Of a stretch of DNA of 64,000 nt, positions 756 to 16,770 are shown piece after piece; the first letter of the stretch is position 1, and each line of letters opens with the position of its first letter. The notes beneath the pieces are model-generated. The model made no database searches. It was not told the DNA's origin and saw only the letters and a list, made by a program, of their open reading frames with translations. The stretch is from a virus. Taxonomy: Duplodnaviria > Caudoviricetes. Made by a program: the position numbers and the translations under genes. The stretch is taken from the IMG/VR virus record IMGVR_UViG_3300048893_000079, positions 1-64,000 of that record. One strand, 5' to 3'.

Positions 756-792
756 CAACCGCCTTCTGCGGGACTGGTTAACAACCCGTTAC
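756..792 (-). promoter_or_regulatory. CtrA-like box (GTAA-N7-TTAACC) followed after 17 nt by TTG; upstream of gene at 708
   Basis: plus strand TTAAcaacccgTTAC 778-792; CAA at 756-758; same geometry at 4065-4101 and 9769-9805. Confidence 0.6.
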
Positions 793-935
793 CGGGCGCT
801 GCCGTCCTTGTCCGTGATCGTGATGAAGCCCGGACCGCTCGTCGGCCAGAACCCAAGCTTGCGGATCGAAATCCACACGCGACCGAACTGCCAGTCGTAA
901 CTTGTTGCACCGTGCTGGCACCAAACGAATATCAC
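789..935 (-). CDS. small hypothetical protein (48 aa)
   Basis: hand translation MIFVWCQHGATSYDWQFGRVW...; GTGA overlap with upstream stop. Confidence 0.55.
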   Translation of the reverse strand: MIFVWCQHGATSYDWQFGRVWISIRKLGFWPTSGPGFITITDKDGSAR

Positions 936-1111
936 TTCTCGAACTCCTCGTGGTGTAGGTTCATGATCTTCGCGACGGCGAGCGCGGCCTGATCGCCGTT
1001 GACGACCGCCGGATGGACCACCACGACCGGGAACGACTTCACTGCGGCCTTGTAGCCGTCAGCTTCGTTCGGGATCGCCCAGACCGTCCGACCTTTGGCC
1101 AGGAACTTCAT
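932..1111 (-). CDS. small hypothetical protein (59 aa)
   Basis: hand translation MKFLAKGRTVWAIPNE...; ATGA overlap. Confidence 0.65.
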   Translation of the reverse strand: MKFLAKGRTVWAIPNEADGYKAAVKSFPVVVVHPAVVNGDQAALAVAKIMNLHHEEFEK

Positions 1112-1314
1112 GCCACGGTCCTCGCCTTGACGCCGCGATACGACGCGAGGTTCACGACCTTGCCTTCTGCTTCCGCATTGGCGATGGCCACCTTGAGACC
1201 GCGCTCGGCGCGATACTCGGCTTCCGTGCGCGTCTGCAAAGACGCATTGAACACGTAGTCCGCGATGTCTGTGCGGCGGCGCTTAGGCTGCTGCAACTTT
1301 TCCGATGTATCCAA
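1108..1314 (-). CDS. hypothetical protein
   Basis: track ORF, TTG start with GAAGGAA RBS. Confidence 0.6.
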   Translation of the reverse strand: MDTSEKLQQPKRRRTDIADYVFNASLQTRTEAEYRAERGLKVAIANAEAEGKVVNLASYRGVKARTVA

Positions 1315-1732
1315 AGGTCCGTTTCCTTCTTCCTGTGCTGACGTTGCTGCAACTCGGCGGCGGGGTGAGCGGGCGAAGCTCGTTCAATGCGCCCAGTACG
1401 GGTCCAAGGTCCACAACGGCCATCTCGAACACTTGCTCGACATCCGCGCCGGAATTCCTGAACCACGCACGTGCGTTGTTCACGGTCTTCTCGTACCGCT
1501 TGTAGCGATAGTATTCCATGCCGTCGTACACCGTGGTCGTCTCCGGCGTGATTCCGAATGCATCGAGCACCATTCGTGCGGCGACTTCACGCCACAACAT
1601 TTGCTCGGTGCTCTTCGCTCGGCCTACCGACCGGAGGAACGGCGTCTTCACGTCCTCCGGCAAGCTCTCGTGCCGCGCAATGATCTCAACGGCGAGGCTC
1701 GTCACCGTCTTCGTGGTGTTGTCCGCGCGCAT
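1283..1732 (-). CDS. hypothetical protein, C-terminus ...KVAAA
   Basis: track ORF, overlaps stop of upstream gene. Confidence 0.7.
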   Translation of the reverse strand: MRADNTTKTVTSLAVEIIARHESLPEDVKTPFLRSVGRAKSTEQMLWREVAARMVLDAFGITPETTTVYDGMEYYRYKRYEKTVNNARAWFRNSGADVEQVFEMAVVDLGPVLGALNELRPLTPPPSCSNVSTGRRKRTFGYIGKVAAA

Positions 1733-2631
1733 CAGAAGCGCCCGCCAGCCGGACGCACGCTGCTCCAGTCGAGGCGAAGATCATGATCGCCGTAGTACGT
1801 GTGCGCACCGTCCAGCTTGACGATGTTGCGCGGCGTTGCGTCCACGAAGTACGCCACGTGCTGGAGGCCGTCCACCTTGATGTAGAACTTGCGGTGCATC
1901 TCCCGCCAGAAGTTGATAGCGTTCTCACGCTGCGCCTCGTCGGCAGTCCTGCCGCCCTTCATCTCGCGGATGATCTTGGCACTCGCTTCGTTGCGCTTCA
2001 CGATGCTCGCGCTGAACGAGTATTTACCGTGGTATCGCTCCGTCGTCTCTTTGGCTCGCGCCTTGGCCGCGCGCTCGTCGAACAGGACCGCGACTTCTTC
2101 GAGCACGCTATCGCGGATGGCGTCACGCTCTTGCGGCAACAGGATCGGCTCGCTCGGCGGAACGTAGTTGCCGTCGCGCATCTCGGTCTTCGGTATGATG
2201 GCCTCGGCGTTGCCCGCGAAGTTCATTGCATTCGAGAATTTGAATTCGCCGCCGTCGGCCATGAATTTATCGTACCAGCGCGGCTTGCCATTGCTGTACG
2301 CGTAGTCGATGCCGATCATGTGCGGGGTGCCCTTGGTCACGTCGATTCGGTTGGTCTTCTCGCTGATCTCCTCGCCGATGATCTTCGCGTCAAGCTCCTT
2401 GATCCAGTTCGCAACGCCGTACTTGTTGCGCAGGATGATGAAGTTCGCGAATTGGTCGCTCGTGCAGACGATGGCGAACTTGTCCACCTTGTTTGCGTGG
2501 TCCATCAAATAGCTGCTCTTCAAGCGGAACGACTCCCACAGAACCTTGAAGAAGTTCTCGTCCGCCGTACTGAGCCCGAACGTGGCGCGTGGTACACGCG
2601 TCGCCGGGATGCTGAACATGATGTTTTTCAT
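1732..2631 (-). CDS. hypothetical protein (299 aa)
   Basis: long ORF, AAGGAG RBS, typical codon usage. Confidence 0.85.
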   Translation of the reverse strand: MKNIMFSIPATRVPRATFGLSTADENFFKVLWESFRLKSSYLMDHANKVDKFAIVCTSDQFANFIILRNKYGVANWIKELDAKIIGEEISEKTNRIDVTKGTPHMIGIDYAYSNGKPRWYDKFMADGGEFKFSNAMNFAGNAEAIIPKTEMRDGNYVPPSEPILLPQERDAIRDSVLEEVAVLFDERAAKARAKETTERYHGKYSFSASIVKRNEASAKIIREMKGGRTADEAQRENAINFWREMHRKFYIKVDGLQHVAYFVDATPRNIVKLDGAHTYYGDHDLRLDWSSVRPAGGRF

Positions 2632-2792
2632 CGACCGTACTCCTTTGTGAGTTCTTCCAGCTTCGCGATCTCGGCGGCCTTGGCCTCCTGCGAGCGCGGG
2701 AATTGTTTGACACGCGCATCAACGCGACCGCTGTGTCCCTTGCGCATGCGCTCCAACGCGCCCTTGCGCTTGTCCTTCTTCGATAACGGCAT
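2628..2792 (-). CDS. small basic protein (54 aa)
   Basis: hand translation MPLSKKDKRKGALERMRKG...; AGGAG RBS; ATGA overlap. Confidence 0.65.
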   Translation of the reverse strand: MPLSKKDKRKGALERMRKGHSGRVDARVKQFPRSQEAKAAEIAKLEELTKEYGR

Positions 2793-2854
2793 GTCGTGCT
2801 CCTAGAATAGAACGTAAATGAAAACGAAGACGAATGCGAAGACGTTGACCGGCG

Positions 2855-3136
2855 TCATACGAAGCCACCGATCTCGGCGCAGTTGCATTCACCACGCGGC
2901 TTCTTTGTCGAATTGCATCCGATGTAGTGACGCGCCGGGTCTTGCGGCAACGTCGTTCCGCGTAGTTTGCACTTCCAGCGTGCGAGGCGCGCGGCGCGCT
3001 TGATGAAGTCCGGCGGGTCTTCGCCGTCGCCTTCGCCCCAGTACGCGTCCAGCATCTCGCGGAGGCTGGCAACCAGTGCGCGCTTCTCGGCGAGCACGCG
3101 GGCGTAGTGATTGCGCTGTGCGGTCGGCTTCTTCAC
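2855..3136 (-). CDS. hypothetical protein with Cys/His-rich C-terminus
   Basis: GTGA overlap start, GAAGGAG RBS. Confidence 0.6.
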   Translation of the reverse strand: MKKPTAQRNHYARVLAEKRALVASLREMLDAYWGEGDGEDPPDFIKRAARLARWKCKLRGTTLPQDPARHYIGCNSTKKPRGECNCAEIGGFV

Positions 3137-15364: not shown

Positions 15365-15646
15365 TTAGCAACCGTACGGCATAGGCCGCTCGCATTCCGC
15401 GCGGATTGCTTCGTTACGTTCCGCCGTCACTTCCAAGCGGCGCGACAAGCGGCGAAGCATTGCGGGCGCGTCCGTCACGCGATGCGAAAACAAAAGCGCG
15501 CCGTGCAAGTCGAAACACTTCCAAGCCGGACCGGTCTCATACGTCCGGCGACGTTGGAAAGTCGCGACGGGATGTCCGTCACGCGTTGCCGTTGCGTATT
15601 GCGTGGCGCTATCAATGTGAAGCTCTAAACCGCGTTCCGTAGTCAT
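15365..15646 (-). CDS. early hypothetical protein
   Basis: AAAGGAG RBS. Confidence 0.7.
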   Translation of the reverse strand: MTTERGLELHIDSATQYATATRDGHPVATFQRRRTYETGPAWKCFDLHGALLFSHRVTDAPAMLRRLSRRLEVTAERNEAIRAECERPMPYGC

Positions 15647-15687
15647 TTCAAAAACTCCTTTTCGGTTGAGTGGAAAAATCCGCGCGA

Positions 15688-15879
15688 CTAGATGTCATTC
15701 GCCACGCGGACGCCGCGACAATAGTCCGCCGCGTTCAAGCGCGCCGCTTCGCGCACTAGTGACGGCGTTGCGTTTTCGATTTTCGCGATGCGCTCGGCGA
15801 CGGATTGCGAAGCGTTGCGGCGAAGTGCGGCGCGGACCGTCGCGCGATATTCCGGCGAAAGTGCGAGGGGCTTGGTCAT
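15688..15879 (-). CDS. first early gene, hypothetical
   Basis: AAAGGAG RBS; leader nearly identical to that at 13478-13495. Confidence 0.7.
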   Translation of the reverse strand: MTKPLALSPEYRATVRAALRRNASQSVAERIAKIENATPSLVREAARLNAADYCRGVRVANDI

Positions 15880-15902
15880 GTCAAAAACTCCTTTTTGTGA
15901 GC

Positions 15903-15938
15903 CGTCAGTCTGACGCCCAAGTCTTAACAAAACACTAA
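15903..15938 (-). promoter_or_regulatory. candidate CtrA-dependent promoter (TTAG-N7-TTAA, then 6-bp inverted repeat)
   Basis: plus TTAAcaaaacaCTAA 15924-15938; 45 nt from ATG. Confidence 0.6.
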
Positions 15939-16008
15939 TTTGCGCCCGATTGCCAGCCCCGCGCCGGTCTTTTTCGCCGCGCTAGTCGGAACTTCGCACT
16001 AGCCGCTT

Positions 16009-16082
16009 TGAGACTTACAGGGAACTCCTTTATCTGTAAGGAAGCTCCGCCCAAAATGTGAGACTTACAGGGAACTCCTTTA
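16009..16082 (+). repeat. 24-bp direct repeat TGAGACTTACAGGGAACTCCTTTA x2
   Basis: 16009-16032 and 16059-16082; CTTACAG/CTGTAAG inverted pair 16014-16040. Confidence 0.9.
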
Positions 16083-16350
16083 GAGATATCGCGAAAGATA
16101 ACTGAAAGTTATATGCGGCGTGCGCGCTTCGCGCTCCGCCTTGTCATGAGAGATTGAAAGACAGGGAAAGGCAACGCCGGACGCGGCGAGCAATGCCCGG
16201 CCATGGCTTGGCGAAGGCATACAGGCGCACGGCGCTCCGCACTGGTAGCAGGGAACGGCGCGCACGGCTTAGGCCGCTCGGCGTGCCGCGCTAGGGCTTT
16301 ACGTCGCCAAGAAAGCACGCCTAGACCGCAACCAATGGGACAGAGACCGC

Positions 16351-16770
16351 GTTAACCTTCGATTGCCAGCGAAAGTGCGCCTGCACACAGCCTTGCCATG
16401 GTTAACGTGCTCTAAGCCTTTGATCTTAACCAAGCTTCGTGCAGGGGCCGCAAGCCCCCTCAACGCCGACTGGCGGAAATCCTCGAAAAACATGGTTAAC
16501 GCGGGCGATCCTTGCCCGGCTTGGCCTGCCGGTTAACCAATTAACCATTAACATCAAGCACTTAGCGCCGCGGTTAACCAATTAACCATTAACTTCAATG
16601 ACTTAGATGGTTAATGTGTGCCATAATGGGACGCCGTTAACCAATTAACCATTAACATCAAGCACTTAGATGGTTAACGCATGCAATCGGCGTGCCAACG
16701 CGGGCATAACGTGGTTAATATCAAGGACTTAGATGGTTAATTGCGTCAGAAATGTCGAAACCGGTTAAGA
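16351..16770. repeat. AT-rich TTAAC array: 18 TTAA, 8 TTAACCAT, 5 copies of TTAA-N-WTCAA-NNN-CTTAG
   Basis: GTTAACCAATTAACCATTAAC at 16532, 16573, 16636; 18-mer at 16548, 16589, 16652, 16715 and inverted at 16412. Confidence 0.9.

Follow-up and report, generated by a model that had tools for sequence, protein, structure and literature searches.

Genome organization

The present analysis concerns the first 64 kb (hereafter the window) of IMG/VR record IMGVR_UViG_3300048893_000079, a single virus genome of 82,527 bp that was assembled from soil metagenomes and classed as complete by CheckV, and in particular a long non-coding gap between two diverging gene blocks that is dense in half-sites of the type bound by the response regulator CtrA. 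The genome (GC 59%) is that of a siphophage from soil, and it is a distant relative of Brevundimonas phage Delta with the same layout. As delimited by a codon-usage gene caller, a minus-strand block of small genes, here called early, runs from 15879 down to 138 and continues from 82411 to 77639; a plus-strand gene at 75440-77587 matches the equivalent gene of an uncultured relative, G002, and corresponds in position to the primase of Delta; and a minus-strand replication block extends from 74626 to 53957. The plus-strand block from 17144 to 53891 begins with a collagen-repeat protein and includes two tRNAs and the large terminase (TerL), portal, capsid and tail genes. The features of the divergent gap are as follows.

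15880-17143, no strand: non-coding region of 1264 bp that separates the early block (leftward) from the collagen and structural block (rightward), bounded by gene calls
16398-16740, no strand: array of CtrA-type half-sites, 8 TTAACCAT (13 TTAACCA), in units repeated every 63 bp, with three pairs 22 bp apart around ATCAAGNACTTAG
16009-16022, 16059-16072, 16816-16829 and 16846-16859, plus strand: four direct copies of TGAGACTT(A/C)CAGGG on both sides of the array, with no others elsewhere in the genome
17144-18337, plus strand: collagen-repeat protein, the first rightward gene

The half-site array

The initial annotation had described a half-site array filling the divergent control region, and this description was borne out. 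All 8 copies of TTAACCAT found by a scan of the window fall within the 343 bp from 16398 to 16740, against 0.43 expected, and no shuffled sequence reached 8. About 420 bp of the gap contain 18 TTAA and 13 of the 20 TTAACCA in the genome, and 23-24 of the 29 genomic copies of TTAACC are intergenic, with intergenic DNA making up 10% of the genome. Each unit of the array reads GGTTAACCAATTAACCATTAAC, then the 13-bp spacer ATCAAGNACTTAG, then ATGGTTAA, so that TTAA starts lie 8, 7 and 22 bp apart, and the whole repeats every 63 bp. Compared with a close relative, L003, the stretch from 16363 to 16912 shows 88-100% identity in each 50-bp window; the left part of the gap is diverged and includes insertions and deletions. 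The TGAGACTT(A/C)CAGGG copies are conserved in L003 even where their flanks have diverged, there is a partial inverted copy near 16959, and the element could be the site of a second protein. In four soil sequencing runs pieces of the region were mostly near-identical, with few differences listed and none of those displayed lying at the boxes described below or inside the array, so that these runs offer no usable variation at the sites or at the protein tails considered later. No RNA run containing the phage is listed.

Small open reading frames (ORFs) in the gap were considered as genes and rejected by eye; the 64-aa frame at 16299-16493 differs from its L003 counterpart mostly at non-synonymous positions, and the L003 insertions and deletions are not in threes. 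A scan of the gap for sigma-70 and terminator consensus sequences was uninformative, an Rfam search of positions 1-23000 returned the two tRNAs only, with none in 15880-17143, and megablast and blastn comparisons of the window and of the array with the phage collection gave nothing useful.

Promoter boxes and their modules

A second group of CtrA-like sequences is found upstream of individual genes. The sequence TTAA-N7-TTAA occurs exactly once in the window, at 9791-9805, and with one mismatch allowed there are five boxes, at 778, 4087, 9791, 13524 and 15924, compared with 3.65 +/- 1.9 expected; in the small intergenic segments 4 are found where 1.26 would be expected (P=0.04). It is the context of these boxes, namely two shared modules at fixed distances from start codons, and not their number, that marks them as non-random. 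The three boxes of class 1 have the form [G/T]TAA[C/G]-N6-TTAACCA[A/G]-N15-TTG, with TTAACCA 73-76 nt 5' of a minus-strand ATG (708, 4014 and 9720), and all class-1 modules are oriented toward their downstream gene. The two boxes of class 2 end in TTGTTAAGAC and are followed by a hairpin and then by AAAGGAG(A/T)TTTTGACATG, and they lie 45-47 nt from the ATG (13477 and 15879). Thus, of the claim that five CtrA-like boxes precede early genes in two geometries, both fixed geometries proved real, but only one box is exact and the five are close to the number that chance would supply. Two further class-1 copies, one of them upstream of a GapR gene, lie outside the early block.

778-792, minus strand: class-1 box GTAAC-N6-TTAACCAG, 73 nt 5' of the ATG at 708
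4087-4101, minus strand: class-1 box GTAAC-N6-TTAACCAA, 76 nt 5' of the ATG at 4014
9791-9805, minus strand: class-1 box TTAAG-N6-TTAACCAA, the sole exact TTAA-N7-TTAA, 74 nt 5' of the ATG at 9720
13524-13538, minus strand: class-2 box TTTAC-N6-TTAAG(AC) with the shared hairpin and leader, 47 nt 5' of the ATG at 13477
15924-15938, minus strand: class-2 box TTAGT-N6-TTAAG(AC), also present in L003, 45 nt 5' of the ATG with which the early block begins (15879)
57700-57706, minus strand: further class-1 module TTAACCAG-N15-TTTG, 84 nt 5' of the GapR gene
Genome position 72787, beyond the window: further class-1 copy with a TTTA 5' half, upstream of the gene at 72371-72652

Comparison with other phages

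Experiments have established that CtrA reads sites of this kind in Delta, in phiCbK and in a Mesorhizobium phage. In the 87-kb genome of Delta the modules diverge from a 1312-bp gap in which there are 30 TTAA and 12 full CtrA sites (Mascolo et al. 2022, PMC9437464), and the gap of Sphingomonas phage MMDA13, ~1.2 kb long, contains repeats of TGCGTTAACCAT (PMC9437464). In the same work CtrA was found to bind at predicted sites and, within the Delta gap, both to bind and to repress; DELTA_120 is repressed by it, and gp5 and gp18 of phiCbK are activated. The authors propose "lytic deferment"; ClpX is not mentioned there (Mascolo et al. 2022, PMC9437464). The CtrA-site signature, which comparison among phages bears out well here, has thus already been described for Delta and MMDA13. 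Like both of these phages, the present one has its diverging blocks separated by 1.2-1.3 kb of non-coding DNA dense in GTTAACC or TTAACCAT, sites that are nearly all intergenic, and probably an alphaproteobacterial host. The Delta gap carries the same words as the array, GTTAACCATTAAC and CATGGTTAAC, and the MMDA13 gap has CGTTAACCAT three times. There are also several differences. First is that Delta has 12 canonical TTAA-N7-TTAA sites in its gap, whereas the array here consists of ungapped half-sites only. Secondly, modules resembling full sites are instead placed here at internal promoters of the early block and 5' of the GapR gene, and a small ORF like DELTA_120 is not evident in the gap. 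Measured against the properties of LPEG-type phages with clustered CtrA sites (Mascolo et al. 2022), positions, as judged by word counts, are strongly skewed (all 8 window copies of TTAACCAT in 343 bp, and 13/20 genomic TTAACCA in the gap), preference for intergenic DNA is evident (23-24/29 TTAACC), and canonical full sites are absent from the dense region.

Identity with Delta is 52% for the capsid, 35% for TerL and 33% for the polymerase, and only structural and replication genes are common to the two phages, with zero early genes among them. A search with TerL led to closer uncultured relatives, with TerL identities of 54-58% and capsid identities of 70-72% for G001 and G002. Three of these relatives (G001, G002 and G005) have TTAACCAT arrays in the long non-coding stretch that precedes the structural block, the one in G002 including the canonical TTAACCATTCGTTAACCAT, and the early genes of these relatives are almost all unlike those of the present phage. 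Retention of the motif while flanks, spacers and neighboring genes change suggests that what these phages have in common is a host factor rather than a phage protein. Pseudomonas phage YuA, a relative with a gamma-proteobacterial host, has a single TTAACC in 50 kb and a different repeated promoter. Whether the arrays are convergent or have been retained over unrelated early genes, the case for host-factor sensing is made stronger by them.

Probable reading of the sites by CtrA

We lean, with modest confidence, toward an explanation in which the array and promoter modules are read by the host CtrA, phage transcription is subject to the state of CtrA in the host cell, and the Ala-Ala ends of some early proteins, considered below, are a mild general trait. 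The host response regulator would read the TTAACCAT half-sites in the 1.26-kb gap and would also read at least five early or middle promoters, each with a module of the [G/T]TAA-N7-TTAACCA type or with the second type of box at a fixed distance from the start codon. Published CtrA motifs are TTAACCAT and TTAA-N7-TTAA, with a full site near -35 at activated promoters and a half-site over -10 at repressed ones (PMC6180460). By analogy with such promoters, the full-site modules 5' of early genes may favor activation and the half-sites repression, with both the direction and the targets being predictions, and the lytic program would then follow the CtrA state of the host, as in "lytic deferment". 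The motifs are the same as those of Caulobacter crescentus CtrA promoters and origin, and the rule of full sites and half-sites fits both kinds of site here, but the -35 and -10 placement here is a guess from sequence, and for the 22-bp pairs around an IHF-like spacer no described counterpart is known. A host master regulator also sets lytic timing in phi29-family phages (Spo0A) and in LexA-controlled phages (reviewed in PMC9437464), which differ in the regulator, the host group and the architecture of the sites.

Several observations weigh against this explanation. The leftward block is inferred to be early solely from its position in the layout. No canonical TTAA-N7-TTAA was found in the array even with one mismatch allowed, only half-sites, and the loose count of boxes is by itself near chance. 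The array is 350-800 bp from either flanking start codon, so it is not clear which promoter it would control. The 13-bp spacers are kept across repeat units, a constancy that CtrA would not require and that could reflect recent duplication or a second binding protein.

An alternative explanation could be that the array is a replication origin, a set of iterons or an operator array of a phage protein or another host protein (for example IHF with a partner), and that the modules are the phage's own promoter consensus. The regular 63-bp units with conserved spacers would fit such a function, as would the lack of N7 full sites and the flanking TGAGACTTACAGGG repeats, and YuA-type phages are annotated with repeated phage-specific promoters. 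One array spacer matches the IHF consensus WATCAANNNNTTR exactly and others nearly so, but with 2 matches against 0.76 expected this is not above chance. Against the alternative, TTAACCAT or GTTAAC is the only element common to the arrays of this phage, G001, G002, G005, Delta and MMDA13, with spacers and flanks differing among them. An early protein that might act as the binder and is conserved among these phages was not found, and Pfam searches of 30 early proteins gave almost no matches, with no helix-turn-helix family among them. We regard a non-CtrA array as rather unlikely. The Caulobacter origin itself carries CtrA sites, so an origin function would not exclude CtrA control.

Reading by CtrA is the best account presently available, and the proposal in the initial annotation that CtrA times early transcription is retained in that qualified form, given that motifs of this type fill the equivalent regions of Delta, G001, G002 and G005; the concept, however, is not new (PMC9437464). 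What is added is an extension of the published signature to an uncultured lineage of soil phages, comprising this phage and at least three relatives, and a variant design in which a half-site-only array is combined with full-site-like modules at internal promoters and upstream of the phage GapR gene.

The GapR gene and the probable host group

57371-57622, minus strand: GapR homologue (PF10073, 92 bits), identified by profile match

GapR is a protein family of Alphaproteobacteria, and the presence of its gene points to an alphaproteobacterial host. The closest bacterial GapR proteins (61-64% identity) are from Micropepsaceae and uncultured alphaproteobacterial metagenome-assembled genomes (MAGs), and all genomes with a closest GapR also encode an RcdA-family protein. 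No DNA match of the early region was found in the five MAGs with the closest GapR. Because the phage gene has its own TTAACCAG-N15-TTTG module, it is possible that this copy of a host nucleoid protein shares the control of the early genes. The initial annotation had linked GapR and a long collagen fiber to the targeting of motile cells; both genes are indeed present, but GapR lies outside the interval discussed there (756-16770) and neither gene demonstrates such targeting, nor does a collagen-repeat protein reveal whether a pilus, a flagellum or some other structure serves as receptor.

Ala-Ala ends of early proteins

Seven early proteins had been said to end in Ala-Ala and suggested to be cleared, through ClpXP, at the G1-S transition. 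Seven called ORFs do have this ending, representing 7/42 called early genes compared with 0/108 other genes (Fisher 9e-5), and six of them are credible genes.

1283-1732, minus strand: 149-aa early protein ending AAA, from gene calls
6987-7337, minus strand: 116-aa early protein ending QAA (phrog_15581)
9777-9929, minus strand: 50-aa ORF ending KAA, a doubtful gene with a GTG start, weak coding score and no ribosome-binding site, and containing a class-1 box
10580-10885, minus strand: 101-aa early protein ending SAA
12383-12613, minus strand: 76-aa early protein ending EAA, with the GGAGG ribosome-binding site of the next gene within its last codons
13172-13477, minus strand: 101-aa early protein ending KAA (PF23790 Kyano_Gp96)
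14007-15299, minus strand: 430-aa early protein ending KAA (phrog_2319), with conserved Cys and His residues C135, H137, C138 and C165

The ORF at 9777-9929 is probably not a gene, and the count of seven proteins stands with that reservation. Open frames of this region that are non-coding end in Ala-Ala in 1/207 cases, and Ala is present at the last two positions of early proteins at 31% and 24% compared with ~12% further in. The asymmetry between early and other genes is seen also in Delta (4/60 and 0/57) and in G002 (3/54 and 1/110), and pooling of the three phages gives p=5e-6 for early versus late genes. It is not seen everywhere; none of the 29 early genes of MMDA13 has the ending, and in the first 50 kb of phiCbK 7/83 genes have it, across all modules.

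The choice of baseline is important. Proteins encoded on two alphaproteobacterial MAG contigs (L240-L254) end in Ala-Ala in 19/296 cases, or 6.4%, and those of 96 unrelated phage loci in 1.2%. This MAG-contig rate is ~4 times compositional expectation and 5 times the rate in the unrelated phage loci. A background of 6.4% is one that every argument from counting degrons needs, and with it the early-versus-late asymmetry gains a proper baseline in the host-type proteome. Relative to it the present phage, at 16.7%, shows a ~2.6-fold excess (p=0.017), while the pooled early rate of 9.0% is not different (p=0.13) and the pooled late rate, 0.4%, is in keeping with composition alone.

One explanation is that the endings have no dedicated role and reflect an alphaproteobacterial habit at C-termini together with Ala-rich composition and constraints at gene junctions, with virion and replication genes keeping a generic phage pattern. 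The pooled comparison with the MAG contigs is as this would have it, the late genes and the 96 phage loci both fit simple composition, and early proteins are richer in Ala (13.0% versus 10.9%). Endings are also not conserved in orthologues: in the 101-aa and 116-aa families the tail is kept only at >=95% identity and is gone at <=70%. Origin as a by-product of ribosome-binding sites was considered and fits 12383-12613 and perhaps 13172-13477, not the rest, and so just one or two of seven tails are explained in that way. The excess over the MAG rate in this phage, its limitation to the last two positions and the signal in the family of the 430-aa protein are not what an absence of function would predict, and we judge an entirely roleless tail to have slightly less than an even chance of being correct.

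The opposite view is that of a paired timer, in which early transcription is gated by CtrA and the tails, as ClpXP degrons under selection, cause early proteins to be removed at G1-S. The asymmetry in three phages, the Ala enrichment at the end of early proteins and its rarity in non-coding frames could be read in this way, as could the recurrence of the ending in the 430-aa family. In an E. coli degron screen terminal Ala-Ala was necessary but not sufficient, with Leu or another hydrophobic residue favored upstream and Pro, His, Gly and small polar residues disfavored at -3 (PMC10862746). The residues at -3 here are A, Q, K, S, E, K and K, and the favored Leu or hydrophobic residue is absent, although the consensus is that of E. 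coli and the rules of alphaproteobacterial ClpX may differ. In Caulobacter terminal Ala-Ala is called a typical ClpXP signature, and known substrates are stabilized by AA-to-DD changes. G1-S timing of CtrA proteolysis requires adaptors (CpdR, RcdA and PopA) and extra determinants, and because timing needs such determinants it would not follow from a bare Ala-Ala tail; nothing here suggests that they are present. The tails resemble the ssrA-like C-motif-1 degrons of the ssrA tag, CtrA and NstA in ending in Ala-Ala with a free carboxylate, but differ in that the upstream residues are polar or charged and adaptor determinants that would give timing are lacking, and any degron here is putative. 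Added to this are the loss of tails in orthologues of two families, the MMDA13 result, the small margin over the 6.4% background and the one or two tails that overlap the next gene's ribosome-binding site, so that the paired timer appears very unlikely.

It follows that clearing of early proteins by ClpXP at G1-S fared poorly as a proposal, with only a small excess over background, unfavored -3 residues and tails lost in two families, and the pairing of input and output remains speculation, as no link of degradation to G1-S is seen in the sequence. On present evidence the Ala-Ala tails are a mild trait common to alphaproteobacterial proteins and not a dedicated, cell-cycle-timed output, and some of them probably raise the sensitivity of early proteins to ClpXP.

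The 430-aa early protein

A strong signal for the tails comes from the family of the 430-aa protein at 14007-15299. Ala-Ala ends were found in 18/64 members, on non-homologous tails differing in length and sequence, with Ala at 47% and 41% of the last two positions and 14% at the third, and the excess over the MAG rate is large (p=7e-8). Members of the family are found widely, in phages infecting many hosts, with recurrent small non-polar C-terminal tails, and the tail is likely to be functional in this family, as judged from these endings. A structural model of the protein (mean predicted local distance difference test score, pLDDT, 86.7) has two beta-rich domains resembling oligonucleotide-binding (OB) folds and a helical domain, and Foldseek gave weak OB-fold matches only (E about 0.007), to single-strand DNA-binding proteins (SSB). 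The last ten residues have pLDDT 72, with a short helix at 424-429. Viral and metagenome scans for 430-aa loci gave only relatives at ~30% identity or short contigs.

A GANTC-free zone and minor observations

The sequence GANTC, the CcrM and HinfI site, does not occur between 2531 and 17224, a span of 14.7 kb that takes in the gap and the greater part of the early block and that would have 27 at the frequency found elsewhere in the genome (P=1.4e-12). Among 54 palindromes tested, GANTC was the most depleted. In 2532-17223 GATC, TCGA and CGGCCG are low as well, and CGCG and GCGC are twofold enriched. The phage encodes no CcrM-type methyltransferase (PF01555). Possible causes of the void are avoidance of restriction in the first-expressed DNA, insulation from CcrM and GcrA, or mosaic origin. 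As a clean and strong signal it could bear on restriction avoidance or on the CcrM and GcrA arm of the cell cycle. One might imagine the host cell cycle shaping the early module at three levels, with transcription read by CtrA, ClpXP-sensitive Ala-Ala tails that let protein levels follow promoter activity, and a purge of GANTC from the control region and the first 13 kb of early genes, but we give this scheme little credence. A purge, if true, would keep the early region free of CcrM methylation, of GcrA and of restriction that cuts at GANTC.

Two long stretches of the early block have no convincing gene call, 7503-8136 (634 bp) and 10216-10579 (364 bp), and the first of these contains a lone TTAACC at 7687. 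In Delta (L001/L002, MN862068) about a dozen unrelated proteins, including the small terminase, primase, endonuclease and several of unknown function, end in an acidic tail of the type D-[E/P/A]-[F/W]-D-I-L, suggestive of a common docking motif similar to the C-terminal tip of SSB.

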